64,000 nt of DNA. Source: Flaccisagitta enflata (taxonomy: Eukaryota). The notes beneath the pieces were generated by a model. It had not been told where the DNA came from. It did not search any database and saw only the letters and a list, made by a program, of their open reading frames with translations. How positions within the stretch are numbered: position 1 is the stretch's first letter; each line of letters starts with the position of its first letter. Both the position numbers and the translations under genes were made by a program. Shown here piece by piece: positions 5,244 to 41,800 of the stretch. Location of the stretch: NCBI GenBank assembly GCA_965153355.1, contig OZ231126.1:5704001-5768000 (forward strand). The letters are read 5' to 3'.

Positions 5244-5793
5244 TGTCTTTTTTTTCTTTCTTTTTACGTGCGCCGCGCCAACGCACGCCAACGCACGTCA
5301 ATATGAGGCGGAGTCCGTTAGTTGGTCGGTCGGTAATGCATTCGTTCAAAGATCTTTTTGGCTTTTTGGCTCGTTTTTTCTTTTTGGCTGCCTAATTTAT
5401 CAACCGGTAAAAGGGGTAAATTCAGCCATCATCAAGTTTAAACGAGTCGGTATTTTAAAATCAAATCTAGCCATAATTTTTAGTTTGTTTTTTTTTCAAT
5501 TGTTTGAGTTGCAAAGCAGTTATAAGTCAACTCTGTTGACCAGGCGGAGACAGAAAAACAGTCTCAAGCATCATGCTTATCAATTATCACCCTATAAAAG
5601 AAAACCGTAAGTAGAAAAAATAATAATATACCATATTTTTGCAAAAGGTAACGTCAAGAGGAATCAGTTAACAACAACAAGGAGGGCTACGGGGGGTCAA
5701 ACGAAACGTTACGGGATACAACTCGCTGGAAAAAAAAAATTTGAAAAAAAAATGTTTGAAAAAATGACATGAACAACAAGATATAGCGATGGA

Positions 5794-9434: not shown

Positions 9435-15485
<6,051 letters not shown>

Positions 15486-19000: not shown

Positions 19001-20054
19001 CTCTTCCTCGTCTGTTAGACCAATAAGAGAACAATAAAAGAACAATTAGGCTTCACTACTCTTGCTCGTCTGTCAACAATTAACAATCAATGACCAAAGA
19101 ACAATTTAAGGACAAAACGCTGTAAATCTGATTGAGACAGACAACGAATTGTTATGACACGAATTTGTAAAACTATGAACCGTGAACGCGTCCCCATTCT
19201 TACTCAGCTCTTAGTTGTACTTGCTCTGTACCTTTCTTACCTCGTGATCAATTTTGGCGTTTTCTGCGGCGTATCGTCGTCGTCATCATTTTGATCATTA
19301 TCTTGATCATTACGAGTTTGCGGCGCTTTTCTCTTTTCGCCGATGAGTGAAGTTGCCGCGGTTGGGGGATTGAGCATCGTGTTGGTAATTCTACCACCAC
19401 CTTGAGAGCCGCCGCCGACGACGACACCACCACCGACCTTACTACCACCACCACCACCACCGCTAACAACACCACCACCACCGGCATCCCCTCCGACGAC
19501 ACCACCGATGTCGACGACGGAATGTACCAGCCTTGTCGGCTTCGCATTGGAGGTGGTCAGTTTCTTCGGCAATCTGTAGTCATTAAGAACTCGCTTGTTT
19601 TGACTGACCAGTCTTCGAACGGCCGAATTGAGTTGCTTCGTTTTCGTCGCCGTCGTTGAGTTCAAATCCGTCGGCGAACTCAAAACTGTTTTTTGAATAA
19701 ATCAAATCAAACATATGAAAATGTTTGGAAAAATATGAAGAAGCCAACAACAACCAGTTGACAACTGACAAGTTTTCACCGCAAATGGAACAGACGAAGA
19801 ATCAAATCATGTTTTAAGGCCTATATGTTATACTTAAATCATGTTCTCATGAACCCATCGTCAATATTAGCAGTAGCAGTAGCAGTAAGAAATGGAAAAT
19901 CACCGTTCAATTGAGTCCCGTCTTGAGCGGCCGTGAATCCAAGTTGTTGCGGCAGTAGCCTCAATCCCTGCGAATCGCTGAATGCCAGGATCAAGTTCGA
20001 TCCAGTCAGCAAACTGAGATCCCCTGAGATGATCTGCGAATTTGGAAATTCCAT
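16025..20054 (-). CDS. ZNF839: ZNF839-like protein (single C2H2-like finger plus DUF4764-like region), about 999 aa
   Basis: Exons 20054-19904, 19685-19241, 19011-18953, 18650-18112, 17935-17723 and 17617-16025 (3000 nt, in phase); start context gccATGG. Motifs follow the ZNF839 order: TRRGRVVKP, CPHLDCIKAYVSAKLLRRHLERYPSH, KCTDQEFLEVIL...SPFDFLLLK, FERLHEQVAAVCQ. Confidence 0.75.
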
Positions 20055-20787
20055 GGCTGACGATCACGGAGGGCCGAGCCTGACGCGCGTTGATGAATGG
20101 AGTTTTACATCCTAGCAGTGGCAGCTCTTTTTGAGGCCTTAGATCAATGACTGGAGGAACGGATAACATCTACTAGATATTGACGAGATGCTCTAAAAAT
20201 ATAAAGAAAAGGTTCTTTTAATAAGGCAGGTCCGAGACAAAATATGAAGAGCCAAAAAAACGTTGAGAACAATTCATAAATAAATGTTGACATGTAAGTT
20301 AACTACGGCCTGCTATGTAGATAAAATACGTTATGGAGAGTCAAATACTGGATATGAAACGCGCTTTACAAAACGATCATTTTTATAGAAAATTTTAACA
20401 AAGAATGAACGGTAATTCTGGTAAAACAATTCTGAATAACTCAGAATTCATGTATTCTTTCCATTTTCAAAGAGTTAAATGGTATCAAGCACGATTGTGA
20501 AGATAAGGCACGTCGGAAGGGAAAATGCGAAATGTATGGACGGAAATAAGTAGGTCACCAACGAAATCTCAACTCAAGTTTCATCACTCTTATGTAATAG
20601 ATCGATGTGGAATTGTGAAATTGTGGACGGAGGAACTCGAGTCGCGATGTAGGATGAGGCCGAATGGTGAAGGCATGGCCGTGGCGCGTTGTTTCTTAGT
20701 AATACAAATGGGGGGGACTTGTCTTTTTCACCGTCGATAGCGAATCAAGCTGACGTCGCATCGTTTAGGTTATTGTTGCCGCTGATG

Positions 20788-23700
20788 TCAAAGACCTTCC
20801 AAATCCTCTTGTAAAAGCGACGCCCGCTGGTTCAAACTTTGAACCTGGAGGAAAGGAGGACGAAGAAAGCTTCATCATTAACAATTACGTCACAACCCTA
20901 ATAACAACGTCACTACATCAAATCAACACTAACGATATGGCGTCATAACCAACAAATTAACTCATTCATCGACACTATCTGCGTCATCACAAGATCCTCA
21001 ATGTCACCCCTAACGGACATAGCATCATCAATGACATAAAATCTCGTGAATGTCATAAGATCAACAACGTCGTTGTCTCTGAATGTTCCTGCCACAAAAA
21101 ACCCTCGATCAACGTTTTGAACAAAATGAACTTCCAAGTTTCTTTAAGGTGTCGATTTTGTTCGGTTTTGATGGACTGACCGTGTGGCTTACTTGGATCT
21201 TGAGGGATGCGATTGTGTCTTCGAGTTGAGTCTTGAGGTCTGCCGGCAACATTGTGGACAATTTCTCTTCGTGTTCTAACCGAAGTTGAGTCATTCGATC
21301 TTCAAAGTCTAACTCTTGATGCTCCAAACGACGCTCGAGACTACCCAGCTTGCCCTAAGGGAGGGGATAGATGGGAGGAGGAAGAGGAAAGAAAGCGTCA
21401 GGAGAAAGGACAAGGGAAGAGGAGGAAGAGGAAAGAGAGGGGTGGGGGAAAGGGCAAGGGAAGAGGAAAGAGAGGGGCGGGGGAAAGGGCAGGAGAAGAG
21501 GAGGAAAAGAAGAGTAATGGGCGGGGGAAAGGGCAAGGGAAAGGGCAAGGGAAAGAGAGGGGCGTGGAAGAAGGGCATGGGAAGAGGAGGAAGAGGAAAG
21601 AGGGGCGGGGTAAAGGGCAAGGGAAGAGGAGGAAGAGGAAAGAGGGGCAGTGGTGGAGGAAGAAGAGTGAAAGCGGCAGGGGAAGAGGAGGAAGAGGAGA
21701 GAAAGCGACAGGGAGGAGGAAGAGGAGAGAAAGCGGCAGGGAAGAGAGAGAGAACATAACCGGAGGGAAACAGGGGAATGAATAGGAAGAGTTGAGAGTA
21801 CAGGAATGAGTATTATGATTTGAGTTTGGACCCCGATTTGATGAAGGTGTTCGCGACTTAATGTAAGTACAAAGTAGTTAGCATGGAAATGTATTGGTAA
21901 TGGATCGATGTCAAGGTGAGGATGGTCGGATTGGAATGGATGGAAATGTTATGTTAGGTAAACAGGCAGCATTGCCTTCATTTTTCTAACGACTCTGATC
22001 TTACTTTAAGTATCTCGACGTGTTGCTGTTGGTTGAGAACTTCTGTGAGCCCGTTTCTTCTTTCAAACTCAACGTCGGTTTTGTGACGTTCCAATTCCTC
22101 TTCCAGACGAATTCGATGAGCCTCGTCTTAAGACAATGGAAACGAAAAAAAAAATATTTGATAGAAATTCTTTTTGGTGCTTTGATGAAATAGAGAATAA
22201 AGATCCTATACCTTGCTTAAACTTTAGGTGCCTCCACACGCTAAATTAGCGATCCGTTTGTAGTCCAAAAGCCTCAACCGATTTGTGACAGTGCAACGTA
22301 ATGAACAGGCGCTTAAAACAAGCGCTTACCACAGCTGACCAATAACCAACCCCGCAAAACTTCGTCAATCTCCAGGATTTCCCAGGTTAATAGTCTTCTT
22401 CTTCTTGTTACCTTTGTTGTCCATTTCCGCGTTGAGTCGGTTGACTTGAGCGACGATTTCTTTGTTTTTGTTGATTTCTTCTTCCATTCTCCTTCGATAT
22501 TCATCCTCGATCTTCTTCAATTTGACTCCGGCGTTGGTCAACGTCGACTCCATCTCCTCCGCGTGAGAGCGAGCCAGAGACAATCTACAAAGCGAAAGAG
22601 AAAACAAAAGTCACTATCAACCTCATATGCATATTGCAGTGAGATGGGGTTAGGGATAGGAGGATTAAAGCATCCAGGGATACTTCCCCGTCGCCAGGCA
22701 AAAAAAGATTCGTTAAAGCGAAGTGATCTTAATTGGTCACTTCCATTGCATTCAGTAACGTTTCTCTGTGTTATATGATCATACAGACCAATTTAGGTAT
22801 GCTAAGCCTCTACTGTTCCATTTGTTCTATATTACTTTTAAAAAATCGGGAATAGCTGAACGTTTGCAACTCTATCTCCGCTTTAAGTCTCTAATCTCTA
22901 ATTTAAAGCGTCCCCTAAGAGATCTGCTCTCTACCGTTAAGGGACGTGTAAAATAATAACCCGATCAGATGGAAAAGCAATGGTTCTTTCCATTTACATA
23001 ATCAAAAGCATCCCCTAAAGGATCTACTTTTTACCGCAAGGGGACACATAAAAAAATTAGCCGATCAGATGATAGTCGCAAAAGCGTTAGATGGTCGGCG
23101 GTACCCGTGCCCTGCCTAAGTAGGTTATGGTTAAATTAAGGGGGGAGCAGGGCAGCGGCCCCGAAGGGGTCGATGACCTTTGCTTTCACACGTATTGGGG
23201 ATTTTCTCCTTCTCCTTCTCCTCCTCCTCCGTCCCTCCCTCCTCAATCCCAGTCTTGAGGCCAAAATCCCAGCCTCAAGGCCCAAATCCTAGACTCAATG
23301 CCCAAATCCTAGCCTGGAGGCTGAGATATGGGCCTCAAGGCCGGGATATGGGCCTCAAGGCCGGGATCTGGGCCTCTTGGCTGAGATTTTGACGTTGAGG
23401 CTGAGATTTGGGCCTCATTACTGAAATCTGGGCCTCCAGGCTAGGATTTGGGCTTTGAGGCTGGGATTTCAGCCTCGAGACTGGGATTTGGGCCTCGAGA
23501 CTGGAATTTGGGCCTCCAGACTGGGATGGGGGGGGGGACGTAGAAGAAGGAGAAGGAGAAAATCCCCCATACGTGTGAAAGCATAGGTCCTCGACCCCTT
23601 CGGGGCCGCTGCCCAAAAAAGCAGTAGCGCGTGGGATCGCAAAAGAAACAGCATAGATAATTTCAAATTAAATCGCTCAAATTGACTAACAGACAACAGA

Positions 23701-26700
23701 ACTAAGAGGGGATAGGGAATCGGCCAATCAGCCGGAAAAGGGAGGGGAAGAGATATACGTTAGGTGAAGGTTGCCAAATTGCACTCCCAGTAAAGTTAGT
23801 GATATCAGCTCAGATCTTAAACTGCTTAAAGTAATCTTAATACAGGGAATACCGCGCCAACCGGGACAAAAGAAAACAACATATTTTCTCTTCTGAAAAT
23901 GACAAATTTGATTTGAAAACAGATTCTAGTAGATCTTTTAAACCGATTTTATTTCATTAAGAAAAACCATAACTGAATAGTACACTGAAAGCACACAAAA
24001 AGATGGAAAAAAGCCAAAATTTGACAAATTTCTTGTAATTTTTTCAAAAAATGCGCTAAGTACTTCAATCGTACACTTCTTTTGTTAACTATTGCAACAA
24101 AGATTGGATTAAAAAACTTGGATTTGTCTTAAATTGAATGGGGAATCAATATAGTATTATGAAAAAGCTTGGGTTTCTTTCGTTGAAATTTTTCACTCAA
24201 TTGAAGAAAAAAATCAAAAATCCAACTATTTCATCAAGAAACTCGGTTAAATTTTCAAAAATTATTAAAAATAGGCAATTGGAATGGTAGAGTATGAAAC
24301 TACATCGAATCATCTATCATTCAAGACCAATCCCAGCATAGTAGCTCGATTTGTCTAGATTTGGCAAGAGTATGAAGAAATGTTGTTAAAACATAACAAT
24401 CACAAATTTTTGCAATTTCAGATTTCATGATTTACATAAGAAGTGATACTAAGGCCAAAGTATTGGTCGACAAAGTTTATAGATAACAAAATCGGTTCTA
24501 AAGCTCTCTCTGGAACTGTTGTCAGAATTGATCCACCATTTTTAGATGCAGAGATATGTCGTTTTCTTTCGTCCCGGTAGGCGGGGTATTCCCTGTATAA
24601 CGGAGACGGAAAAGTATTTTCAATAAGTTTTTTTTTCGACAGAAGCTAATGAACTTACCTTTGCTGTTCCAGTTGTGATTTGTGCTTCCTTTCCGCCTCT
24701 TCGAGGGATCGTTTGAGGTCACGTTCCGTCTTCTCGGCTTCTTCGCCAACTTTGGCCAATTGGCGTCGGTTTTCGTCGTGAATCTCGATGATTTGTTGGC
24801 GTAATTCCTTCACCTGATCGTCAGTCATCAGCCAGAAAGAGGAACAATTAAGTGAATTATGGTGGAAACAATTCGAATTAACATCACAGCATATTTAATG
24901 ATATCTGTTTTAAGTGCGGCATAAGAGAGAAATTGTAAGCCGGGACTCGGAATTAGGACTGGGCATGGAAGGACTGGAGATTGGGACACTTGAATTACAC
25001 TTTTTTTATAAGGACCAGTAGATTTTTTCTGAGGGCGGGATATCCTTAAATCTTCACAAATTTTAGGCTGAAATATTCTTAACGTGTCCTTAATTTTTTT
25101 CTATGATTTTCTTATAATTATGTTATACTCATTGAAATAATGGAAGTACAGTATGAGTAAATACAAGTTAATGATAACAATCACTGTTTTATATTTGTTT
25201 ATAATAGGAAAATGTAAATTTAACTTTAAGAAATTTCCATTCTGCGTAGATAAGGTTATTTTCTCAAAGATTTTGCATAATGACCATTTAAATCATCAAA
25301 TATACAAACTTATTTACAAATTTGAAGCTGGGCTTTGTCCTTAAAATGTCCTTAATTTCTAGCAAAATTTCAGCCTCATGTCCTTATGAAGTTTGTCCTT
25401 ACTCAAAAAAAAGAGTGTAGGGACGCTTGACCTGGCGAAAAACAGCTCTCTTCAGATTCATCTTCACGACTTACAACATATGTAAGGGGTTATAAATATC
25501 ATTATAAGATTTAATGCATTGGTGTATGAGACTTGAGATTGTGAAATCAGTGATTGGAACGTGAGACAAGGGGGGAATTGAAAGGATAGAACTTGGGGAT
25601 TTATAAATAGATTTTGTCCTTGTACTTGAACTCGAACTTTGGATTTTGTGGGTCCTATGGCTAAGGATCGAACCTGTTGGTCAAGTTCTGCGATGGCGGC
25701 ATCATCGATTTCTTTCTTAGCCACGTGATCGTCCACCAATCTCTCTATTTCTCCAAAATGTAAACTCCTATCAGAAAATGGGAGAACGCAGATATTCTTG
25801 AGGATGATTAAGGATGGCAACAAAGGGACAACAAAAGATAAGCGAAAATCATCATGCGTAATTCTCACTTGAGTTGATCCATTTCGTCATCTTTGGATTT
25901 GAGCAAAACTTCTTTTTCCATCGCGGCATCTTTGGTAAGCGTCAGTTTTTGTGTCTCCACCTCGCTCCTCAAACGCTCAATCTGATTTTAAAGGCGGCAA
26001 CAAGTTACCCGGGGGTTAAAATAACATCTCTGATGGATGGGCAGTCGCTGGGCACTGGGCAGGGGCGTACAACCCAATCCCCCCCACATCCACATACAAT
26101 CATTTATTCAGCACCTGAAATACGCGTTTTCATACTTTAAATTCCCCCTCGGGCATCAAAAATGGACGGACCAACGTGACGGACGGACGGACGAAAGCTT
26201 TAAGAGTTTCGAGTCTGCGACTAAAAATCGTCAGCAAACACACATCAGCTATGAATCATGACTGCAACGACAACAATAACCATGACGCAATGACAAAGTA
26301 ATGACACAGAACTGATAATATTATTAACGCGATATAAAGGTCATGGCAGCGGTAAGAGAGCCTCTAACAATAACATTGACACATGTACATGAAAACAACC
26401 GTCCCACACAAGGTAAAACATCTCATCTTATCGAACTGACATTCATCAGTTACCTCTCTCTCGGCGCATTTTTTCTCCTCTTCCATTTGTCTTTTCATCT
26501 CCTTGGATTGCTTCTCCCTCAGCACTCTCGATGTTTCCAAGTCCGCCTCGACGGCCTTCATTTGCTGTTGCATTTCCTTGAAGTTTTTCGCCGCCGTCGC
26601 TTCCATTTGACTCTGAATGTCGGTAAAATTTGATAATAATTTTTTTTGCTCTTTTGTTTATCGTAGTGGGGCAAGGGGACTGCAATAGAACAAGGCCGGA

Positions 26701-29378
26701 TACACGGCCATCAGTTGCGGACGGGTGGGCAGGGGCGGAAATAAGCGATTTCCCACTTTTCAACTCGAGCGTGACGGACCGACCAACCGACCAACGGACG
26801 GACGGACAAAGCCTCTTATAGAGTTGCGTGTCCGCAACTAAAAACTTGACGCTGCTGCAAAATACATAATCGTAATTACCTACATCACCAAACCTAATCC
26901 TAAATGACATCAAAGTTAAACACAAACCAACCCCAACACTAAGACAAACCAACCCCCCTCCCTCCCTCCCCCCCCCCCCCGAGTTCTCCGGACCCAAAAA
27001 AAAACATAGGTCTAAATACCAAAACTCCAACAAAACCTGAAATTCTCTCAACGCGTTCTCGGAAGAGCAAGTTTGCAGCTCTAATTCCGACTTGAGCCTT
27101 TCGCATTCTTTGCGTTTACTTTTCAGATTTTCTTCCAAACGCGCGTTCTTTGTCTGTAATTCGCTCTCCTGTCAAGGGGTTTTGAAAACGAAAAGGGATT
27201 GACATGAAAGTCACGAGAAGCAATGCGGACCGAGCTATTGTGTTTCAACAGAGACAAAGAAGCAGTCAGGTACAAGTTGACAACGAAAAAAATATAAAGC
27301 CTTAAGATTGCAAAACAAAGATATCGCGCTTTCCCAATTCTTCTTCAACCCCCCCCTTTTCTCGTCGAGGATGTACCTGTTGCGCGGCTTTTCTTTCCAT
27401 TTGTTTGGCTTCGGCTTCGACTGTGGCGATGTTGGCTGCGAGTTTGTCTATGGCTTCTTTGTGTTCTTGGGCTTCAACATCACCACGTTGCCTCTCACGC
27501 TTCAAATTCTCAACGTCTTCTTCGCTGCGGCGCAATTTCTCCGTCGTCGAGGACAACTCCTGACGAAGCAGTTCAACGGCGGCCCGATGACTCGCTGAGG
27601 ACTGTTGAAGACTCGTCTGTCATAGAGAAAATTGGAGAATGTTTCATGTGATAGAGAAAGGTCACTTTACTATGGTGTAATTGCGCGGCATCAACAACAA
27701 TGTACTGCACAGAAAAAGCAAGTTCGTCAATTTTTAACGCCATAATAACATGAAAGTATGCCTCCCCCAAAATTTTATTGGAATGATAGAAACTGCAAGT
27801 CCCTTGTTCCAAGTAGTAAGCGGACACACAACCGTTTCAAGTTATGAAAATTATCGTTGGAAAACGACGTATTTCCGCTCTAAAATGAGTTTGATATACA
27901 TAGCTTCACTGTTATGTACTCGGTTATGAGCAGTTTATATGTAAACATAGGCAGATATATGATTAAACACACATGAGACGATCAGGAAATGATGAAAAAG
28001 CGATGAAAAACACAAAACGCAATCGTTAGAAAATGCAAAAAAACTCTTAACTTTGAACCTACAGGCGAGGGTCTAGAATTTTTTCCGTCGGCGAGCTTCA
28101 TACATATATGATAGAGGAGACTTTAATCTGCCAGAGACTGTTTTCAAAAAATATTTTCTCCGATGCGCACACTTTCTACCAATCGCGTCTTTTCATGGCC
28201 TGTTAGTATAAAAACCTCTGAGTGGTTTGAAAGCTTCAGGAGGAAGTTTGCGGAAACAAACGAGGATTTTAACCCGAGTTCTGTTTAATTAACGCTGTCT
28301 GTGATACCTTAAAAACAACCGCGATTGGCATTTTTTTGAACATATATCTTTAAAAATGCCTAATGAAGCCTATTTAAGTAATATTCTCCCCAAAAGTGAC
28401 CCTGAATTTTTAAGCATCCCCTTACTATTCCAAGAGAGTCGTTTTTAGGTGCGACAAAGCACTTCTATAAATGGCTGTGTCCGTCGGTCGGTCGGTCGGT
28501 TGGTTGGTAACGCATTTGTTCGAAGATCCACACGTCGCACCTTAATGGCCTACTTAGCCCTGTTCCTTGGAATATGGACAAATGAGCCTATTGCTGTATT
28601 CCTCCAACTCAATCTCTGCGAACCTTCTTAATTCCCCGACATGTTCTGGAGCGATCTCACTCTCTCTGATCCCCCGCCCCAACCTCCGGGCCCCTATTCA
28701 CAGTTTCCAAGACAACACGGCATTTGATCAACAGATTTGCCCAGAGCCTGCTCTTCCCCAACTTCCGGCCTCACCTCGAATTCTTTCTTTTGCGCTTCTT
28801 GGTTTCTGTCCATTTCGTTGTTCTTTTCTTCGGCCTGCCTTAATTTGGCCGCCAAGTCGTCGCTTCTCGCTTCCATCATCGCCATCTCTTGGATCATTCG
28901 TTGACGACTAGAGGCGCTGATCTCAGCATCTTCGGTTAGCGTCGCAATCCTAAGAGAAAGTTTGTTTGTTGACCATTAATGGCGCTGATCTCAGCATCTT
29001 CGGTTAGCGTCGCAATCCTAAGAGAAAGTTTGTTTGTTGACCATTAAAGGCGCTGATCTCAGCATCTTCGGTTAGCGTCGCAATCCTAAGAGAAAGAGTT
29101 TATTTGTTGACCATTAGAGGCGCTGATCTCAGCATAATTGTCAGCAACGCAATCCTAAGAGAAAGAGTTAATATCTCTTGGATCATTCATTGACGACCAG
29201 AGGCGCTGATCTCAGCATCTTCGGTCAGCGTCGCATTTCTGTGATAGAAAGAGAAAGAAAGCGGGAAAGAATGAAAGGAAGGAAGAAGGACAGAAAGAAA
29301 GAAAGAAGGCAAGAAAGAAGGCAAGAAAGAAGGCAAGAAAGAAGGCAAGAAAGAAGGCAAGAAAGAAGGCAAGAAAGC

Positions 29379-29448
<70 letters not shown>

Positions 29449-32400
29449 AAAAGACAGAAAGAAAGAGAGAAGGGCAAAGCAACGGAAGGCGAAATGATGG
29501 AAACGTTCAGAAAGCGAAAAAAAAAGTTGTGCATTCTGGGCCACAAAGTTACAATTGTTTATTAGCTGACGCCTTAACAGCTCATTGGCGCCGTTGAAGG
29601 AAGTAGCTCACAAAAGATCTTCGTGAAATCAGTTTTTCTGTCCCCAATCGCGTCCGCAAAGATGAACAAGTCCAGGGCTAACGTATCGGCGGTCGATGCA
29701 AAACCATCGGCAGTAACGAAACCATCGGCAATAGCAACGGGGAAGCCTTCATCGACGCATCCTTTGAACGCGATGAAAAAGACGACTTCGACGGGATTAA
29801 AGACGACCACGACTTACGATCCCAACTCACTCACCGATGATTCTTTCAGCACTTACTCCGAGGTCTCAAGTCATAGTTCTTATACACTTTTTTTTATAGG
29901 AACGTAATTTTTTTTTGAAGGCTTTATTTTCTTATTTTGGAGGTCAAATAAAGCCTTTAATGTTCTTAGAGCGTTCTTAATTAAAAATACTATATAAACT
30001 ATAAGGAACTTTATAATATACTATTATTTGATTATATTAGATATATTTCTATTGAATACTATTAAAACAAATGCTACACATTAATGTCTGGGGATATTTT
30101 CTTAGTATTCATATCAAAAATTATAAAATTTTTATTATAATCATACTAAAATATTAGTGTTTTGTTAATGTTATTTTAAGCAAAATTTTTTTTCTCAAGA
30201 TTTAAAGCCTTTGTATATTCTTAAGATGTTCTTGATTTTTGGGCCTTTGAAGCGTTGATGTTCTTATAAACTAGGTTCTCATGAAAGAAAAGTGTACATG
30301 AATACATTGAAAATAAGACAAGCCCAGGAAGGCCAAGGATGTACACTTACACGCGTAATACAACGAAGATTTCAAAAACTGTAAAAAAAGTTACCACCTC
30401 TACCCACAGCTTATGACAAAACTTCCACAGGATCATATGGGGTATCATTCTGTAGCTTGTCACAGTATAATTTACGCCACGGAGGCGATTTTTTAATGTC
30501 GCTCCCATTCTACCCCAAACATTGGCGGCGGACACCCCCATTGGCGGCGGTAAAACAAGGCCGGATACACGGTAATCCAGTCGCGGATGGTTGGGCAGGA
30601 GCAGTAATGCAAAAACCGCTCGGAATTCAAAAATGTGACGGACGGACCGACATACCGACCTACCGAACGACACGGCAAGGTGTAGAGTCGCGTGTCCGCG
30701 ACTAAAAATCCGCCTTTTGGAGAGAATATCTCTTGAAGACTTGAACGGAGGCGAAATTTAAAATTCGCCTCGGTGGCGTAAATTCTATTGAGATAAGCTA
30801 TTGAATAAAACGGTTAATACCATACACGACCATGTGGCTACGGCGACATGAGCTGCAGCGGGGGGGCTAAACCTTTTCCGTAATCTTCACGTTGTATTCA
30901 ACGTGCGTGTGTATTTATGAACATGTATTGATAAATGAAATGTATAATTGAATAAAATGATAAATGATCAGATTGTAGCAGCTTTTTCAGTAAAAAAAGC
31001 CTCAGATTTTAGGCGATGAATATTTGCATGACCAACAGGCCGACCGACCAACAGATACAGTCTCATATAGAGAAGGCGAGGACGAGGATCTAAAACGTCA
31101 GTTTCAAATGACGAATTAGTTTGAATTGACGATATAGATTATTCCAACCAAACAGAGATAGCTTACAAAAGAAATTGCTCTGAGATATCAAGCCACCAAA
31201 CATGAGCCAAGGCCCCAGGGATATTAATAAGATCAGTGCAGATATGGACAAATTGTATAAAACATAGTGTGTTGTAAATTCCACTCATATTCAGTAATTG
31301 CAATGACCTTCCCACTCCCAGAGTCGTACAGAGGCAATGAAAATACAACGAGAGGAGCAGCCAAAATCTCTAGCAACCCCCCCCCCCCTGCAGCTTAAAT
31401 AATCAATATTACATAAATTTTTAAAATAACAGCTGATAGTTTGTCCTAATAAAATTCCCGCAATCAGAGCAATTTTTGCATTTGAACCTAGTTTTCAAGA
31501 AACAGCGGTTCTAAGGGTCAAAATCAACCATTTTTGCAAATATTGAATTTTACCTTTTTATGACTATTATTTTAGATATTAAAAGGAAGTTAAAAAAATC
31601 GCCTTGATGGCGGAAATTTTTATGACTATTATTTTAGGTATTAAAAGGAAATTAAAAAATCGCCTTGATGGCGGAAATTAAATTGTGGTATACTATCAAC
31701 TGCCACTTCACTTACCCCTGTTACATATATAATAATAGCAGCCCAAAGGCGGTAAGTGGTCAGCGGTACCCGTGCCCTGCTTGAGTAGTATGTGATTTGC
31801 TGAGAGGGAGCAGGGCAGCGGGCCCCGGGACGAAGTCTCAGAACACACAACTGGCCGTCCGCCCGTCCGTCCATCTCTGTCCCCCCTGCCCCATCCTCTG
31901 TCTCCTTCAGAGCTATTTTGACCCCAACCTGCAATCAAATCCAGCAATATGGCCCAAATCTTAAAAATGAGTCAAGATATAGCTCAATTCAAGCAAAATG
32001 GCCCAAATCTGGTCATAATCTAGGTATTGGAGGCCAAAATGATGGACCTCAGGCCAGAATTAGGGTTTTCTGGCAAGATTTACGCCATTTTGCTTGGATT
32101 TGGGTCATTTTGCTTAAATTTGGGCCATATTGCTTGGATTTGGGCTATTTGGCAGAATTAGGGTCAGAATAGGCCCCAAAGGAGACGAAGCCCTGAGGAT
32201 GGGGCAGGGGGGGACGGACGGACGGACGTACGGACGGACGGACGGACAGATTCCCCCTGTGTTCTACAGGACTTCGTCCCCTTCGGGGCCGCTGCCCAAA
32301 AGCTGCAGGGGGGGGGTTGCTAGAAATTTTGCGGCTCCTCGCATTGTATTTTCATTGCAACTGTACTCCTCTGCGGGCTGAATGGCTTCTCCTTCCTGTA

Positions 32401-34644
32401 AGCCATCGCAGGCAACAAAGGGGGCAGGATCACCGTTCGCATTCATTCATATCGATGGTTTTCTCATTCCCAGAGTCGTACTCCCTCTGCAGGCCAGATG
32501 GCATCTCCTTCCCTTATGCAATCGCGGCCACGCAGGCGACAGAGGGCGCGGGATCGCAATTCATATTCGATTATTCATTCATGTTGAATTTATCAATGGT
32601 TTCCTCTTTTCTAGAGTCGTTCTCCCTCTGCGGGCCGAATGGCTTCTCCTTCCCATATGCCATCGCGGGTGACAGAGGGCGCGGGATCGCTGTTCAGCGG
32701 CAGTCAAAACTCCAACTCGGCAGAATACTACTTCCCTTCGTCCGATCTTTACTACACAAGCGAAACCGAACTCAGCGTCAGGAAGAAAGTCAAAAGGAAC
32801 AAAATATGCTTGAAGTGAGAAAACAAGGCCAAGAAGGCCAACGATGCGTCCTCTTTAAATGTTTTTATGAATTAATGTTTTTCATGAATGAACGTTTTTT
32901 ATGAATGAATGTTTTTTATGAATGAATATTATTTATGAATGAATATCATTTATGAATGAATAAATTATGTAATGTATGCTACTTTTACTGGGTTAAAAAC
33001 TCATTCCTGTTGTAAAAATGCATGATTTTGATGTTTTTAATGAATGCGTTACCAACCAACCAACAGACAGACCAACCGACGGACACAGCCTATCATAGAG
33101 ATGCGAGGACGCATCTAAAAAGGAAAATGGCAAGGGGAAGAAAGAAGCAAACCAACAAAGAGAAAAGAAAGGAAGGAAGAGAAAGGAAGGAAGAGAAAGG
33201 AAAAGAAAAGAAACAGGAGAAGAAAGAGAAACAAAGAGAGAACTTTAGAAACAATGAAAGAAGGAACAGATAAGAAGAAGGAAACGAAAGAGAAAACAAG
33301 GCCAAGTAGGCCAATAAGGTGCGACGTGTGGATCGTCGAAAGAATGCGTTACCCGACAGACCAACAGACCGACCAACCAACGGACACAGCCAGTTATAGA
33401 GGTGCTTTGTCGCACCTAAAAAGACAAATTGAAACAAAGAAAGAAAGGAAAGCAAGAAGAAGAGATGATAAGAATGGAATAGCGATAGATGAAAAAGAAA
33501 ATGTTTATGGAATGATGTGGTGATGCCTATTTAGTGTGATGTGATTCTTCCTCCCCCTCCTCCCCCCACCTTTCCACCTCCTTCATTGACAGAGTGGCAT
33601 GGTTCTTCTTGTTGGTCGTTTCCTGGTTCGCCGGAGTTGTGGTCGAGGCCGAACTTAAACTAATTAACACTCTACAAGGACTCAAAAGATATCTCGATCC
33701 TCAACCAGGAGAAATTGGAAAAGAATCCTAGAAGCGCATCGACAGTATGACGCTCCTTTTAGACAGAATTTATCTTAATCCTTGACCGGACTTAGTTGAA
33801 TCCTTGTCGTGCAGTGACTTAATGAAATTCTCTATACATACATACGGGATGTTTATTTTTAATCACCTACAAAAGAAAGTAAATACTGGACCTTCTTATA
33901 AAGGGAAAAGCCTGGTTTGAAACCTCACAAACGAGGATAAAGGATTTAGGACTTTTGGGGCAATCCACATCAATAAATACATTTGAACTGTCAGCCAAAT
34001 AAACGCGTGACATTCCAAACCTCCCTCTAACCGATGTTCAGAAGGAGTTGGGATGAAAGTGGAGGAGTTGGCCCCCTATTCCGTCTTGCACCCCCCCCCC
34101 TCTCTCATTCTCCTTCCAGGGGTGTATATTATTGAGTCGCTTTTGATTTTTTTCCCCCCCCTGCCTTTGATTTTCTTCCCCGCGACGCGTCGCGTCGCGT
34201 TTTTATATCCATGATTTTCTTCCCCATATAGCAATAAAACTATGTATTTAAGGTTTAAATAGTGTTAAATTGTGTTTTACTAATTGAGTTTTATGATTTG
34301 GTACTGCCAAAAGTTATATTTTCCCCAAATTTCCTCTTTTTCTCTTTTTTCCCCCTTTGAGTTCCTTCCCCATCTCCAGACCCTTTGATTTTTCCCCCCC
34401 CCCCCGGTGGGGGGGGGAAACTCAAGAATATACAGGCCTGTCTCCTTCCCTACCTATTTTCTAAGTCCTTGACGATGCAGGCTGTGTTGTCCGCTTCCTT
34501 GGCGTAGTCGGCCTCCATCGTGGTCAGCCTTTCGTTCGTTTCACTCAGCAGCTCTTCCATATTCTTCGTGTTTTGCTGACGAAATTAAGTTACAATATCG
34601 TCGCGGATGGATGGGCATGGGGTGTACACTGTACAGTCCCCACC

Positions 34645-34731: not shown

Positions 34732-36465
34732 GCACACTGCCCTCTGTCACACAAACACACACGCACGCACACTGCTCACACACGCACACACACGTACACA
34801 CACACACGCACACACTGCCCTCTTTCGCACAGACACACATGTACACACAGACACACACACACCCACAGAGAAACACACCCACAGAGACACACACGCACAG
34901 AGACACACACGCACAGAGACACACACGCACAGAGACACACACGCACAGAGACACACACGCACAGAGACACACACGCACAGAGACACACACGCACAGAGAC
35001 ACACACGCACGCACAGAGATACACACGCACAGAGAAACACACACACGCACAGAGACACAGAGAGACGTTTTGGAGCTTGCCGCTGACTATCACCTTTTGC
35101 AACTCGAACTTTTCTTGTTCAAAAGCAGCGACGATGTCGTGAATTTTCCGCTCATAATCGTTGGCTTGAGTCTGAGAATGATGTAGTCCAAAATAAGAGA
35201 AAGGAGATAAGAAAAGAAGATTTGGGAAAAAGGCAGTTCAAAATCATTTTGTCGAATTACAAGGGACCAACAAAATACTTTGTTAAATAGACAATAAAAG
35301 GAATTCTTTGAAGGGACTTAAATTTCATTTTTTTGTTTGTTCCATTTATATGTTTCTTGTTACTTGTTACATGCGTATTCGTTAGAACATGATTTGACTG
35401 TACTGCTCGTGCTATGATAGGCCCGTTATTGCAGTTTACACTCCAATCCGGCATCTCAGTTGTGAACAGAATGCAGAAATCATTTCGAGAGCGAATGAGA
35501 TTTGGGGGGCAGACTGAGTGGCCAAGGCAGAGTATGGTTATTTTCAGTGTTTTTTGTTATCTATTCTTTCTTTCAGGCCTGTATATTGTTCCGTATTTCC
35601 CCCCCCCCCCGGTGGGGGGGGGAAAATAATCAAAGGGTTTGGAGAAAGGGAAGAAAAAGGAGGGAGGAAAAAAGGGAAAAAAGAGAAAACTTGGGGAAAA
35701 TATAACTTTTGGCAGTAAAAAATCATAAAACATGATAAGTTAAACACCATTTAACATTATTTAAACCTTAAACATCTAGTTTTAGTGGTTTATGGGGAAG
35801 AAAAACATTGATTTGGTAACGCGACGCGATGCGTCGCGGGGAAGAAAATCAAAGGCAGGGGGGGGAAAATAATCAAAGGTTATGGAATTATATACACCCC
35901 TGCTTTCTTTTTCTTTCTTTCTCTATCTTTCTTTCTCTATCTTTCTTTCTCTATCTTTCTTTCTCTATCTTTCTTTCTCTATCTTTCTTTCTCTATCTTT
36001 CTTTCTCTATCTTTCTTTCTCTATCTTTCTTTCTCTATCTTTCTTTCTCTATCTTTCTTTCTCTCTCTTTCTTTCTCTCTCTTTCTTTCTCTCTCTTTCT
36101 TTCTCTCTCTTTCTTTCTTTCTCTTTCTCTCTCTTTCTTTCTCTATCTTTCTTTCTCTATCTTTCTTTCTCTATCTTTCTTTCTCTATCTTTCTTTCTCT
36201 ATCTTTCTTTCTCTATCTTTCTTTCTCTATCTTTCTTTCTCTATCTTTCTTTCACTATCTTTCTTTCACTATCTTCCTTTCACTATCTTCCTTTCACTAT
36301 CTTCCTTTCGCTATCTTCCTTTCACTATCTTCCTTTCACTTTCTTCCTTTCACTTTCTTCCTTTCACTTTCTTCCTTTCACTTTCTTCCTTTCACTTTCT
36401 TCCTTTCACTTTCTTCCTTTCACTTTCTTCCTTTCACTTTCTTCCTTTCACTTTCTTCCTTTCTC

Positions 36466-36521
<56 letters not shown>

Positions 36522-38828
36522 TTTTCCCTTTATTTCTTTCATCATCATTTGTTTCTTTGTTTTTTTCATTCTTTGTTTCTTTCATTCTTTGTTTCTTTCA
36601 TTCTTTGTCTCTTTTGTTTCTTTCATTCTTTGTTTCTTTCATTCTTTGTCTCTTTCATTCTTTGTCTCTTTCATTCTTTCATTCTTTGTTACCTTCATTC
36701 TTTGTTTCTTTCACTCTTTCTTCCAATCTTTCATAGTTTCTTTCATTCTTTCTTTTTTTTCATTCTGTCTTTCTGCCATTCTGTCTTTCTGCCATTCTGT
36801 CTTTCTGCCATTCTGTCTTTCTGCCATTCTGTCTTTCTGCCATTCTGTCTTTCTGCCATTTTCTCTTTCTGCCATTTTCTCTTTCTGCCATTCTGTCTTT
36901 CTGCCACTCTGTCTTTCCTACTTTCTTTCTCATACCTGGTTCTGTCTTTCCTACTTTCTTTCTCATACCTGGTTAGTATCCTCTACCAGCTTCCTGAGTT
37001 CGTTGAGTTGTTGTTCTTTTGTTTCCCTGAGAGTTGCGCTCTCTCTCGCCAAATTGTTGAGTTTCTTCTCCGTCGCCCGCGCTCGATCCTCGTGCTCGCG
37101 GATTTTCGTCCTGGAGAAAACAAGGCCGGATACACGGCCACCAGTTGCGAACGGGTGGGCAGGGGCGGAAATGCGCGTTTTCCCACTTTTCAACTCGAGC
37201 GTGACGGACGGACCGACGGACGGACGGACCGACGGACAAAGCCTCTTATAGAGTTGCGTGTCCGCAACTAAAAAGAGACATTCGAGTGCTTATGAATGGT
37301 CCCCCAAAAAGACCCAGAGGCTCGTTCATTTATTCGTTCGCGTACTCGTCTGTTCGTTCATTCATTCATACATTCGTTCGTTCGTTCACGCCTCCTGCCA
37401 TTCAACCTGTATTGCACGCGCATTTCTTCGATTTCTTGATTTTTGCGTTGGAGGATGTTTTGGACATCGTCGTCGTGTCTTTGTTGCAGTTTGAGCTTCT
37501 CCTCTTGGAACTTGGCCTCGACCACTTGGACCTTCATCTCGACGCCCTTTTCCAGGTTCCGCTTGAAGGCGTTCTCGCGATTCTCCAACGTCGATGACGA
37601 CAGCGGAAGACGAGAATGTCTGAAATTAATGAAAATATGATTTGACGAGATGGTTGAGAACCATAGAAGGGAAGAAGAATAAGAAGATATGGAAGAAGAT
37701 GAGGGGTGGAGGGATGAAGTGTCATATCGTATGAAGAAGACAAGAAGACAAGAAGAAAGAAGAAGAAGAAGAAGAAGAAGAAAGAAGAAGAAGAAGAAGA
37801 AGAAGAAGAAGAAGAAGAAGAAGAAGAAGAAGAAGAAGAAGAAGAAGAAGAAGAAGAAGAATGACAAGAAAAAGAAGAATGACTAGAAGAAGAAGAAGAA
37901 GAAGAATGACAAGAAAAAGAAGAATGACTAGAAGAAGAAGAAGAAGAAGAAGAAGTAGAAGAACAGAAGAAAGACAAAAAGAAGTGGAACAGAAGAAAGA
38001 CAAGAAGAAATGGAACAGAAGAAAGACAAAAAAAAAGTAGAAGAACAAAAGAAAGAAAAGATGAACAGAAAAATGGCAAGAAGAAGAACAAAAGAAAGAC
38101 AAGAAGCAGAAAAACAGAAGAAAGACAAGAAGCAGAAAAACAGAAGAAAGACCAATAAGGCCAATAAGGTGCGCCATGTGGATCGTCGGACGAATGCATT
38201 ACAGACCAACCGACCGACCGACGGACACAGCCAGTTGTAGAGGTGCGTTGGCGCACCTAAAAATGACAAGAAGAAGAACAGAAGAAAGACAAGAAGCAGA
38301 AAAGCAGAAGAAAGACAAGAAGAAGAAGACGACAAGAAGAAAAGAAGGACAAAAAGAAGTAGAGGAACAAAAGAAAGAAAAGAAGAATAGAAAAATGGCA
38401 AGAAGAAGAACAAAAGAAAGACAAGAAGCAGAAAAACAGAAGAAAGACAAGAAGCAGAAAAACAGACGAAAGACAAGAAGAAGAAGACGAAGAAAGACAA
38501 GAACAAGTGACGCGGGGTCACAATATCGTTGCGGACGGGTGGGCAGGAGCATCCAACCCCAATCCACATCACAAGTCCCCCACTCACATGCACAAAAAGC
38601 ATCTAAAACACTCATATCCTCACTTTTCAACTCGTGTCCACGGACCAACCAACGGACGGATGGACGGACGGACGGACAAAGCCTCTTATAGAGTTGCGTG
38701 TCCGCAACTAAAAAGAAGACAAGAAATAGAAGAACAGAAGAAAGAAGAAGAAGAAGAAGAACAGAAGAAAGAAGAAGAAGAAGAACAGAAGGAAGAAAAG
38801 AAGAATAACAGAAGAAAGACACCAAGAA

Positions 38829-38863
<35 letters not shown>

Positions 38864-41800
38864 AGAAGAAGGAGAAGAAGGAAGAGGCACAAAAATACGA
38901 GGAAAAGGAATTAGATTTAGAACTAGTAGAAGGTGAAGAAAGATGGACTTTTTGCCCCACTTCTAGCAATAGTTAATTTTACCTTGGGTCTTCTGGTCCA
39001 GTGTCAGTTTCAGAAGATAATTCACCGGTGATGGCTCTGCTTTCCCACCAACGCGTTGAAGGAGAAGAATCCAACTTCTTGTTAGACGTCTTTGTTGACT
39101 GAAAAAAATCGCATGGCAAGAAAATGAAAGTTCAAGACATTGAATAATAAGAAGAAACCGAAAAGAACAAGGAGATGGAGAAGAAAAAAGAAATAGGCAA
39201 GAAGAGAAAAACAAGTAAAAGAAGCAAAAGAAGAAGAAAAACAATGACAACAACTGAACAACAAAAATCTGAACAGTATCTGGGTCCGCGACGGAAGGGG
39301 GTTAAAGATCACCAATTTTGTAAGATCGCTATGACTAAAAGATTGCTAACCCTGTAAGTTCGCCAAAACTTTCATTTAGAGCCGCCATACAAAGTTTCAT
39401 GCAAATCCGTTGAAAAATGACAAAGTTATGCACGTTTTTCACTTTTAGGCTAGTAGGGTGGTTGGGTGGTAGGCTGGTTTAGATAAATAGTGTGCGTATG
39501 TTGAGTTCTTCCATTTAGAGACTCCATACTAAGTTTCAACCAATTTGGTTGAAAAATGTCCAATTCATGTAAGTTTTTACTTTTAGGCCGGTAAGCTGGT
39601 TGGGTGGTAGGTTGGTTTGGCCGGTTAGCATGCTCAAACATAAATAAATCACATACATGTATTGAGTCCTTCCATTTAGAGACTCCATACCAAATTTCAA
39701 CCAAATTGGTTGAAAAACGCCAAAGATGTGCACATTTATCACTTTTTGGTTGGTAGGTTTGGTGGGGGTTTGACAGGATAAATGCGATATGTTGAGTTCT
39801 TCCATTTAGAGACCCCATACCAAGTTTCAACAAATAAGTTGAAAATGACAAAGTTAAGCAAGTTTTTCACTTTCCGGTTGGGTTGGTTGGGTGGTAGGTT
39901 TGGCGGTTAGCATGCTCAAATGCATATAAATCATATACATATGTTGAGGCCTTCCATCTAGAGACTCCATACCAAATTTCAGCCAAATCGGTTGAAAAAT
40001 GCCAAAGTTATGCACGTTTTTCACTTTTAGGCCGGTAGGCTGGTTGGGTGGTAGGCTGGTTTAACAGGATAAATAGTTTGCATATGCTGAGTCCTTCCAT
40101 TTAGAGTCTCCATACCAAGTTTCAACCAAATCAGTTGAAAAATGACAAAGTTACGCAAGTTTTTCACTTTTAGGCCGGTTGGCTGGTTGGGTGGTAGGTC
40201 GGTTTGGCCGGTTAGCATGCTCAAATGCATATAAATCATATACATATGTTGAGGCCTTCCATTTAGAGACTCCATACCAAATTTCAGCCAAATCGGTTGA
40301 AAAATGCCAAAGTTATGCATGTTTTTCACTTTTAGGCCGGTAGGCTGGTTGGGCTGGTTGGGTTGGTCGGATCACAAAAATCGGATAGGATGTAAAGCGC
40401 CTTACCCTAGTACAACTTCCCACCAAATATGAACCAAATCGGTCAAAGCATAAAAAAGTTATCCATTTTTTAAAATCCGGGACGACAACGACGACGACGA
40501 CGACGACGACACCCACCCGCCTTGAATTATAGTCCGCGTCGGAATGATATTCCGTCGCGGACAAAAAGAAGAAGTAGAGTAAGAAGAAGACATTCAAAGA
40601 AGACCAAGGGAGATACACTGGTGGAAGGGAACAGAAACAGTGACGTGGAACACAGATTTAGAAAGAGGCCGAAAACAACTGGAGCCAATCAGGTTAAACG
40701 TGTAGTATAGCTAGTCGACTTACTATATCTGTTGTGTGATCGTTGGAGATCTTGGATGTATCTTGTTGATGGTCACTAGAAAGTTGTGACGACACCGCGT
40801 CCGCACCGCCAAATCCCAGCCTGTTCAATATCAACGCCAAATACAATAGTCGTCAATGTCAACACTAAATACAATAGTCTTCCATGTCATCGCCAAACAT
40901 ATTAGTCGTCAATTTCAACACCAATTGCAAAAGTCTTCAATGTCATCGCCAAATGCAATAGTCCTCAATGTCAACGCCAAATTCAAAAGCTATCAATGTC
41001 AACGCCAAATACATTAGCGTTCAATGTCAAAGCCTTATACAATAGTCTTTAATGTCAACGCCAAATACATCAGTCTTCATTAATCAATAAAATGTGGGTC
41101 CATTTGAAGTTTCAGCGACGCAGATGAGATGAGAGTCTTAAATGCGGTCTGACCTAATATTCACCAATTGGACTCTCACCTCGACAGTTTCGCCTGAACG
41201 CCATTCAATCGCATTCCGTCGTCGTCGTCATCGTCGTCATCGTCGTTAAGTTCCGCGCGTCGGCCACCAGATTTCGTCGTCGTCGTCGTCGTCGTCGTCT
41301 TCTTCGATGTGTATGCGTCCCTCGTCGGGTGAGTTCCACTGTCGTCTTTGTTAGGTTTAAAAGCGTCTTTGGCGAGATGCGGCAAATATCCTTTGATGGG
41401 ATCGAGGTCGTTAAAAGGGCCTTCCAGTCGGCCGACAGTTTTCAACATGTGGAGCATTAATTGGGCGTAATCGTTGCGATTTCGACGACCTTGAATTGGA
41501 ATGACATCAAAGCGGGATCACGACTTGAGATCAAACGCATGTAATCAATAACTCGGCCGCGCTTACATGTAATTACAACGAACTCGTAGGGCGCGTGTAC
41601 CTTCGAACAATTAAGTAAATCGGTCTAATCATCATTAAATGAGCTGCAAGTTGCGTAATGTTTGCAAACCATTCCCCTAACCATCCACACGCCACCTGAC
41701 CTCTGCTACCCTCTCATCCCCTACCCACCAACACGCCGCACCACCTCACCTCCGCTTCCCTCCCAGCTCATCCGCAGTGCCCATCCAGCACCTGACGTCT

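Follow-up and report, generated by a model that had tools for sequence, protein, structure and literature searches.

A probable plus-strand gene for a small membrane protein of the tail-anchored type within an intron of a CEP112-type host gene

We found that the window (the whole 64 kb stretch of DNA analysed) probably carries a real, lineage-restricted gene on its plus strand, which lies within an intron of a CEP112-type host gene and would encode a small membrane-bound adaptor of the tail-anchored type. The gene model joins three pieces, 29662-29862, 32615-32814 and 33593-33731, into 540 nt comprising 179 codons and a stop. All of its splices are GT-AG and in phase (phase 0 for intron 1, phase 2 for intron 2), and the splice-site letters are, in order, GAG/gtctca, ttttctag/AGT, GAA/gtgaga and ttgacag/AGT. 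The three pieces are present just as the original prediction described them, and an open-frame check confirmed that the gene is not visible as a single ORF. As for the hidden gene itself, exons 2 and 3 hold up, both being matched by relatives, but the first exon and the length of 179 aa are less secure, with a weak donor and rival readings to consider.

Exons 2 and 3 and their relatives

The frame of exon 3 (33593-33731, with the stop codon at 33729-33731) was searched alone, as 45 residues, against 1,835,955,588 protein representatives using phmmer, which returned four matches at E<=1e-3. P0002 and P0005, which are simple repeat proteins, were dropped as noise. Exon 3 matched P0003 (128 aa) at 63% identity with E 3.2e-5, and P0004 (183 aa) at 50% identity with E 5.1e-4, both for the whole library; by BLASTP, the match to P0003 has 70% identity over 33 aa (E 2e-15). 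Exon 2 (32615-32814; 66 codons and 2 nt) also aligns to the relatives by BLASTP: residues 29-65 match P0003 48-87 at 54% identity over 41 columns (E 9e-9), and residues 15-65 match P0008 27-78 at 43% identity over 54 columns (E 2e-5). These matches are collinear with those of exon 3 and stop exactly at the junction.

As a control, we shuffled the sequences, and for exon 2 and exon 3 each the observed score was reached by 0 of 2,000 shuffles, against both P0003 and P0007. When the relatives were compared with all 64 kb by tblastn, the two top matches were exon 3 and exon 2 (E 7e-11 and 3e-6 with P0003). Judged by sequence, exons 2 and 3 are more than chance, because they give consecutive matches in two proteins that were found with exon 3 alone. 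The BLASTP and tblastn alignments outline a conserved, putatively cytosolic core at 32699-32809.

The relatives form two clusters, of two and three members, on short contigs: P0003/P0006 (JGI/IMG) and P0004/P0007/P0008 (ENA assemblies), the latter referred to below as the P0004 group. The word "orphan", which had been applied to the protein, is too strong, because these two unnamed clusters exist. A search of a 5.8-billion-cluster collection with the exon 2 peptide gave 38 candidates among longer proteins, none of which scored, and no candidates of near length; therefore, the gene is neither annotated nor assembled there. P0003 found only itself in that collection, and a scan of metagenome contigs with alignment A3 produced 180 pattern matches, of which none was confirmed.

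The junction between exons 2 and 3 is supported by the continuity of P0003 and by an intron-like insert in the P0004 group. P0003 runs across the junction with no gap, reading CYR-LVL where the window has CLK-VAW. P0004, P0007 and P0008 have a 72-aa insert at this very point, starting with R-Y and ending with D-R, and its end TFTDR aligns with SFIDR, the in-frame end of the intron in the window. In the parts of P0004 and P0007 that were compared, the sole difference falls inside the insert. The insert looks like a read-through GT...YAG intron of phase 2, and the position of intron 2 (32815-33592, phase 2, 778 nt) appears, from the peptides alone, to be common to the window and the P0004 group. 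The acceptor of exon 2, ttcctcttttctag, is strong, and its donor, GAA/GTGAGA, agrees with consensus at 6 of 9 positions.

A polyA signal had also been proposed after the gene. There is an AATAAA at 33972-33977, 241 nt past the stop, and a second copy at 33998-34003, but the hexamer is no more frequent than expected by chance (89 copies in the window versus 86 expected). Rfam and tRNA scans of the window gave no matches, and neither did a bacterial promoter and terminator scan of 29000-29700, a type of scan that is not applicable to a eukaryote. Five marine metatranscriptome runs from two studies are listed for the stretch, with shares of 0.07-0.12, which are evidence for neither expression nor habitat; a single raw-read run from poly-A RNA also appears there, entered as "same study".

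The first exon and rival readings

Proposed exon 1 (29662-29862; ATG + 67 codons, S/T/K-rich) occupies a frame that is open for 109 codons from stop to stop, and the model starts at the first ATG of that frame. Between 20000 and 32600, 24 candidate in-phase first exons can be found (ATG...GT, phase 0, at least 40 codons), and the donor of proposed exon 1, GAG/GTCTCA, agrees with consensus at 4 of 9 positions; because of these two facts, the mere existence of an in-phase first exon is not above chance. Pairwise scores and shuffles revealed no similarity between proposed exon 1 and the P0004 group. One further "relative" of exon 1, L001, was the only one to come from at least 597 pattern matches, and was rejected: it is a 407-aa ORF for a bacterial-type protein with several membrane passes, and the match is a chance short patch covering residues 28-48 of the exon 1 query at 61% identity.

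Proposed intron 1 (29863-32614, phase 0) is filled with inverted and direct repeats. It contains an inserted element of about 1 kb at 31330-32362, with inverted ends (inverted repeat I2, arms 31319-31365 and 32327-32373, 83% complementary) and, by eye, GTAC on both flanks. This element splits a pseudo-exon, copy A, whose 5' part lies at 31289-31329 and whose 3' part lies together with copy B at 32366-32586 on the plus strand. Copies A and B are decayed tandem copies of the acceptor and the first ~82 nt of exon 2 (family D5, with three copies at 61-83% identity, and family D12; 80-83% by blastn; alignment A1). We set them aside as alternative exons; inspection by eye shows that copy B is interrupted by an in-frame stop and lacks a donor in the right phase. 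The duplicated head of exon 2 is without counterpart in P0003.

These observations leave room for a shorter gene, which is possible but in our judgement somewhat unlikely. Translation would then begin within exon 2, at one of two candidate start codons, Met 32639 or Met 32657, giving a protein of ~104 or ~98 aa; proposed exon 1 would be outside the gene or non-coding, and the strong acceptor at 32614 would be joined to a different 5' exon or receive a trans-spliced leader. In the tblastn alignments, Met 32657 is paired with Met1 of P0007 (equivalent to Met27 of P0008), and similarity to the P0004 group begins at this residue, with none earlier. The poor donor of proposed exon 1 and its being one among 24 candidates point the same way, as does its lack of similarity to P0007, where the observed score was reached by 1,321 of 2,000 shuffles. 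However, the starts of P0004, P0007 and P0008 are choices of a gene caller on short contigs and are no proof of the true start, and the frame of exon 2 is open from the acceptor on. P0003 also has 47 residues before the conserved core, and these are weakly similar to proposed exon 1: the N-terminus of P0003 gives a marginal match (BLASTP E 0.006; score reached by 67 of 2,000 shuffles), and with the first 47 aa of P0003 the score was reached by 24 of 2,000 shuffles. In addition, proposed exon 1 has a raised GC content (50%) and a CpG observed/expected ratio of 1.6, compared with 0.83 in the window.

Two other readings would deny the window a working gene altogether. Exons 2 and 3 could derive from a real gene of the family whose copy here is silent, either unexpressed or decaying, and it is true that no matching protein turned up in the collections searched and that both an inserted element and two degraded copies of the start of exon 2 sit in the intron upstream. 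We regard this as unlikely, given that the frames of both exons are unbroken, free of stops and frameshifts when compared with proteins at 43-70% identity, that the three splice sites around them are canonical with a good fit to consensus, and that exon 3 keeps 17 of the 17 invariant columns of alignment A3. The probability is close to negligible that there is no gene at all and that the open frames line up by chance or belong to a repeat element. Chains of in-phase ORFs are easy to build, as the candidate first exons illustrate, and repeats abound in the region, with local copies even of the exon 2 head; but exon 1, exon 3 and the UTR regions each occur once in the window, Pfam matched no protein family of repeat elements, and the matches of exons 2 and 3 to two foreign proteins keep the exon order and continue through the junction, at scores that shuffled sequences never reached.

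Protein layout and proposed topology

The preferred reading, a real gene for a membrane-bound adaptor, draws on the layout of the protein. Hydropathy of the 179-aa model reveals one uncharged hydrophobic stretch, aa 135-151 (33594-33644), with a mean Kyte-Doolittle value of 2.46, and no other such stretch. The residues before this predicted helix contain 37% Ser, Thr and Pro, the last 15 of them have a net charge of +7, and the helix is followed by a 28-aa C-terminal tail (33645-33728) with a net charge of -1. The predicted arrangement of a disordered S/T-rich head, a basic patch, one helix and a tail of about 28 aa was thus borne out, and it is kept in the relatives; the SP sites proposed for the head number two, at aa 70 and aa 78. 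By hydropathy, there is also no signal peptide, as had been claimed: the first 60 aa are free of hydrophobic segments (no 15-aa stretch exceeds a Kyte-Doolittle value of 0.22), and the same would be true of a protein starting at either Met in exon 2, because exon 2 is hydrophilic throughout. The basic patch had been described as NLS-like. The patch is there, but we do not prefer a classical NLS and set that reading aside; because the patch sits 4-11 residues before the helix, positive-inside flanking fits equally well.

The window and the P0003/P0004 family share a collinear core, consisting of an aromatic/acidic motif (YYFPSSDLYYTSE in the window), a basic patch (RKKVKRNK in the window), a juxtamembrane Cys, a 17-aa helix with invariant VSWFAGVV (S-x-x-x-G) in alignment A3, and a tail in which an amphipathic stretch and YL[DN]P are conserved. 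Identity to the relatives over the C-terminal half of exon 2 and exon 3 is 43-70%. All three lineages have a 17-aa helix and a tail of 22-28 aa with charge -1 (22 aa in both P0003 and P0007), and the window resembles the relatives in helix length and tail charge and may share its intron position with the P0004 group. In contrast, the N-terminal parts differ in length and sequence, with P0003 falling 51 aa short of the 179-aa model. AF2 models a helix at 87-123 as the sole structured element of P0003, and most residues before it have pLDDT <50. A complex prediction for two copies of P0003 residues 78-128 scored 0.03 against a mark of 0.32, a result that gives no answer on self-association.

From this layout we infer the location, topology, acylation and partner binding of the protein. 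With 28 residues between its end and the C-terminus, and with no N-terminal signal seen, the helix would still be in the ribosome at termination, and insertion would then be post-translational, of the tail-anchored type. Given the charges on the two sides of the helix (+7 before, -1 after), the disordered N-terminal part would face the cytosol and the tail the far side. A mitochondrial or peroxisomal destination is disfavoured by the non-basic tail, and the most likely site would be the ER together with the membranes that it supplies, the nuclear envelope among them. As an adaptor, the protein would recruit a partner through its conserved cytosolic motif, which the basic patch and the Cys (a possible acylation site) would keep at the membrane surface; the S-x-x-x-G face of the helix, together with the tail, would interact with a further protein in the membrane or the lumen.

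Host gene and comparison with known systems

On the minus strand, an open frame at 41179-41517 contains the second half of a DUF4485 domain (Pfam PF14846; E 3.6e-7, 30.5 bits against a cut-off of 24, profile positions 43-82 of 83). Translation of two more minus-strand open frames gives coiled-coil-like, putative host exons on either side of the nested gene, at 34779-35237 and, downstream of it on that strand, at 28697-28975; the latter frame had no family-level match, and Atlas matched the host ORF 27305-27619 to generic coiled-coil families only. In an excerpt of PMC11443074, CEP112 is described as DUF4485 plus coiled coils, and its variants are linked to acephalic spermatozoa. The domain and the coiled-coil layout fit a CEP112-type gene, in agreement with the host named in the original prediction.

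Antisense genes nested in the introns of larger hosts are common in animal genomes. The window resembles these cases in having a small gene on the opposite strand within a host intron, between putative coiled-coil exons at ~28.8 kb and ~34.9 kb, but nothing in it shows a regulatory link with the host. Coupled expression of the two genes and an inner-nuclear-membrane location of the protein, both raised in the original prediction, are speculation.

HMM and structure searches found no known family, which agrees with the original impression that none could be recognised. Pfam gave no matches to the three exon peptides (E<=1) or to P0003, P0004 and P0008 (E<=5), the PDB profile search gave none, Atlas gave no usable match, and a full-text literature search with three helix motifs had no match. 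As far as sequence can tell, the proteins are a small unnamed family, with no known family matching its core. Lineage-restricted small single-pass proteins are common, and the gene is otherwise ordinary, with nothing pointing to a new mechanism. If confirmed, it would add an unannotated conserved small membrane protein to the genome and define a small unnamed family with a clear architecture. It would also illustrate how one 45-residue exon can lead to a gene that no single ORF reveals and that the searched collections lack.

KASH proteins of the outer nuclear membrane have a cytosolic part that is large or disordered, a single helix and, beyond the membrane, a short tail whose 20-30 residues are conserved; a proline-rich extreme C-terminus defines them. 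The window protein is like them in its cytosolic part, single helix and short conserved tail. We do not count it as a member: Pfam gave no match for exon 3 (E<=1) or for P0003, P0004 and P0008 (E<=5), and the tails of the three lineages end differently, without that proline-rich terminus. By analogy, the protein might be a new short-tailed anchor of the nuclear envelope or ER, whose conserved far-side tail, with its amphipathic stretch and YL[DN]P, would dock a luminal partner in a KASH-SUN-like manner, whose cytosolic motif would engage a factor linked to the centrosome or cytoskeleton, and whose position in the host would reflect shared expression; we consider this very unlikely. If it were true, expression would be shared with a centrosomal host, for example in sperm head-tail coupling. 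In FFAT and phospho-FFAT motifs, core position 2 is aromatic and the tract around it is acidic or can be phosphorylated. An FFAT-like fit, judged by eye only, is seen in the window (L-Y-Y-T-S-E-T) and in the P0004 group (V-Y-Y-T-S-E-G), but P0003 has Ser at the aligned position (V-S-Y-T-G-S-T), and we rejected a phospho-FFAT adaptor as a family-wide reading.

Another likeness is to the tail-anchored class (SNAREs, cytochrome b5, the Bcl-2 family), which shares the single helix near the C-terminus and the putatively cytosolic N-terminal bulk. Members of the class enter the membrane post-translationally (by GET/TRC40, EMC or a similar route), with a cytosolic N-terminus. This class is topological rather than homologous, and Pfam and the PDB profile search found no sequence relation to any member. 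In an excerpt of PMC5025589, tail-anchored proteins are described as having a C-terminal TMD and no signal sequence, with the TMD still in the ribosome at termination; the helix lies within 30 residues of the end, and in most members within 10. The window protein has one TM helix, by hydropathy and by the single helix of the AF2 model of P0003, no N-terminal signal by hydropathy, and a distance of 28 residues from helix to C-terminus, at the long end of the range given in that excerpt. Its tail is thus longer than those of most members (<=10 in the same excerpt of PMC5025589) and, because it is conserved, may have a job of its own.

A proposed three-exon gene within an intron of its probable host

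Reading positions 29500-34000 of the window directly and listing all frames, we recovered the three plus-strand pieces that, according to the original prediction, join in phase while remaining hidden as a single open reading frame, and a scripted joining bore this out. The proposed exon 1 (29662-29862), exon 2 (32615-32814) and exon 3 (33593-33731) give 540 nt, or 179 codons and a stop, and no longer single ORF in any of the listed frames contains any of the pieces. The splice sites (slash at the boundary) are GAG/gtctca and ttttctag/AGT for intron 1, in phase 0, and GAA/gtgaga and ttgacag/AGT for intron 2, in phase 2. An AATAAA lies 3' of the model at 33972, with another candidate poly-A signal at 33998; the motif is found 89 times in the window versus 86 expected. 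Signals of this kind (AATAAA, an in-phase first exon, a donor) are weak by themselves.

On the minus strand, DUF4485 scores above its Pfam cut-off at 41179-41517, where an ORF corresponds to the second half of the domain, and translation gave coiled-coil-like frames that flank the nested gene on both sides (27305-27619 and 28697-28975; 34779-35237, 36966-37289 and 37361-37882). According to a figure legend in PMC11443074, CEP112 combines DUF4485 with coiled coils, so these features make a CEP112-type host a reasonable reading of the sequence. Elsewhere on this strand, a Cyclin_N match at 14410-14691 (E 4.9e-7; 30 bits, cut-off 23) lies downstream of a 534-aa open frame without a Pfam match (16028-17629); together they may represent a second gene next to the host, encoding a cyclin whose N-terminal exon is long. 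The minus-strand Claudin_2/Clarin-2-like match at 4995-5297 is weak (21.7 bits, below the cut-off of 29.1). Just past the nested gene is a 483-aa low-complexity open frame (35820-37268, plus strand).

The surrounding sequence is repetitive. The exon 2 acceptor and first ~82 nt form a tandem triplication made up of copies A and B (31289-32586) and exon 2. A ~1 kb element with inverted ends and GTAC at its flanks (31330-32362) interrupts copy A. Judged by eye, copy B contains a stop in frame and lacks an in-phase donor; we read both copies as duplicates that have decayed. Neither exon 1, exon 3 nor the flanks have further copies in the window. Arrays of (GACG)n type sit close to each end of the ~1 kb element. 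Immediately 5' of the proposed exon 1, a 68-84 nt unit occurs four times in tandem (29003-29256), and a long (AAAG)n/(AAGGCAAGAAAG)n microsatellite then extends to ~29500. A short dispersed repeat, probably of a SINE/MITE-like family, is found at 30637-30705, 31030-31095, 33050-33133 and 33351-33434, and consists of a tetranucleotide array (GACG/CCAA-type) that leads into a small stem-loop followed by a TAAAAA run. A repeat-derived peptide, …LYKRLCPSVR.SVG.SVTLELKSGK…, is common to the distant minus-strand frames 26449-27171 and 36966-37289.

Relatives of exons 2 and 3

We searched the 63-aa stop-to-stop frame holding exon 3 against 1.84 billion protein representatives and found four matches at E<=1e-3. 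Two of these (P0002 and P0005), being internally repeated proteins, were discarded as noise. The others, P0003 (128 aa) and P0004 (183 aa), match the frame with their C-termini at 63% and 50% identity, respectively. Although they were picked with exon 3 alone, both also match exon 2. With BLASTP, residues 29-65 of exon 2 align with P0003 48-87 at 54% identity (E 9e-9), residues 15-65 align with 27-78 of P0008, a further member of the P0004 group, at 43% identity (E 2e-5), and exon 3 aligns with P0003 93-125 at 70% identity (E 2e-15). Shuffling each peptide 2,000 times never produced a score as high as the observed one against P0003 or against P0007, another P0004-group member, and when the relatives were compared with the whole window by tblastn, exon 3 ranked first and exon 2 second. 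Because the relatives match both exons, which is the decisive evidence, and the controls agree, exons 2 and 3 are more than a chance resemblance.

The junction between these exons is itself reflected in the relatives. P0003 runs across it without a gap, residue by residue (C-Y-R-L-V-L for C-L-K-V-A-W in the window, where K is the codon split by intron 2). P0004, P0007 and P0008 carry 72 additional residues at exactly this point, beginning with R-Y and ending with D-R, as would be encoded by reading through a phase-2 GT...YAG intron of 216 nt. By tblastn, the end of the insert (T-F-T-D-R) aligns with the window's in-frame intron end (S-F-I-D-R), and in the parts of P0004 and P0007 that were compared, the sole difference falls inside the insert. 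From these peptides we infer that the intron is common to the window and the P0004 group.

No names are attached to the relatives. Pfam returned no match for the three exon peptides or for P0003, P0004 and P0008, a PDB profile search gave none, an Atlas search gave no usable match, and a full-text literature search with three helix motifs found no paper containing them. Judged by these comparisons, the nested gene is real, has so far gone unannotated and belongs to a small family without a name; it lies antisense within a host gene of CEP112 type.

Where the protein begins

The 5' end is less certain. The exon 1 ATG is the first in a 109-codon open frame and has A at -3, and the exon has 50% GC and a CpG observed/expected ratio of 1.6, versus 0.83 for the window. 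It shows a weak collinear likeness to the P0003 N-terminus (BLASTP E 0.006), a score reached by 67 of 2,000 shuffles against the whole of P0003 and by 24 of 2,000 against its first 47 residues. Against P0007 there was no similarity (1,321 of 2,000 shuffles at the observed score), and the window-wide tblastn E-value was 0.73. Its donor matches 4 of 9 consensus positions, versus 6 of 9 for exon 2, and positions 20000-32600 hold 24 in-phase candidates for a first exon (ATG to GT, phase 0, at least 40 codons). A metagenome scan with exon 1 yielded no relative; its sole match, at 802-870 of contig L001, was rejected as due to chance, being a short shared patch in a 407-aa multi-pass membrane ORF of bacterial type. 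The Met at 32657, within exon 2, aligns by tblastn with the first Met of P0007. We give about equal weight to the 179-aa model and to the alternative that translation starts in exon 2 or in a different 5' exon.

Protein layout and proposed mode of action

The model protein has a single uncharged hydrophobic stretch (aa 135-151), flanked on its N-terminal side by 15 residues with a net charge of +7 and on the other by a tail of 28 residues with a net charge of -1; hydropathy showed no hydrophobic N-terminus. Ser, Thr and Pro make up 37% of the part before the helix, with two SP sites. In an alignment of the exon 3 region with its relatives, all 17 invariant columns fall within the helix and tail, including V-S-W-F-A-G-V-V, a Glu after the helix and Y-L-x-P. 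Given this alignment, AF2 modelled P0003 at a mean pLDDT of 53, with helix 87-123 as the only structured element and most preceding residues below 50.

Because of the charge balance around the helix, the N-terminal part would lie in the cytosol. A non-basic tail argues against mitochondrial or peroxisomal targeting, and since the tail here is not basic, the ER and ER-derived membranes would be favoured. A docking site apposed to the membrane is suggested by the conserved cytosolic motif, which adjoins a basic patch and a conserved Cys, and the S-x-x-x-G of the helix and the conserved tail may point to contacts within or across the membrane. KASH membership was rejected because the protein did not pass the test for KASH proteins, and an FFAT-like motif because it is not kept across the P0003/P0004 family.

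The observation in the original prediction is confirmed, and its interpretation is partly supported. The defining property of tail-anchored proteins, according to PMC5025589, is a helix still inside the ribosome at termination. With 22-28 residues between the end of the helix and the C-terminus, and no signal sequence seen, the helix should remain in the ribosome when translation stops. On that definition, the predicted topology of the protein is that of the tail-anchored class, at its long-tail end.
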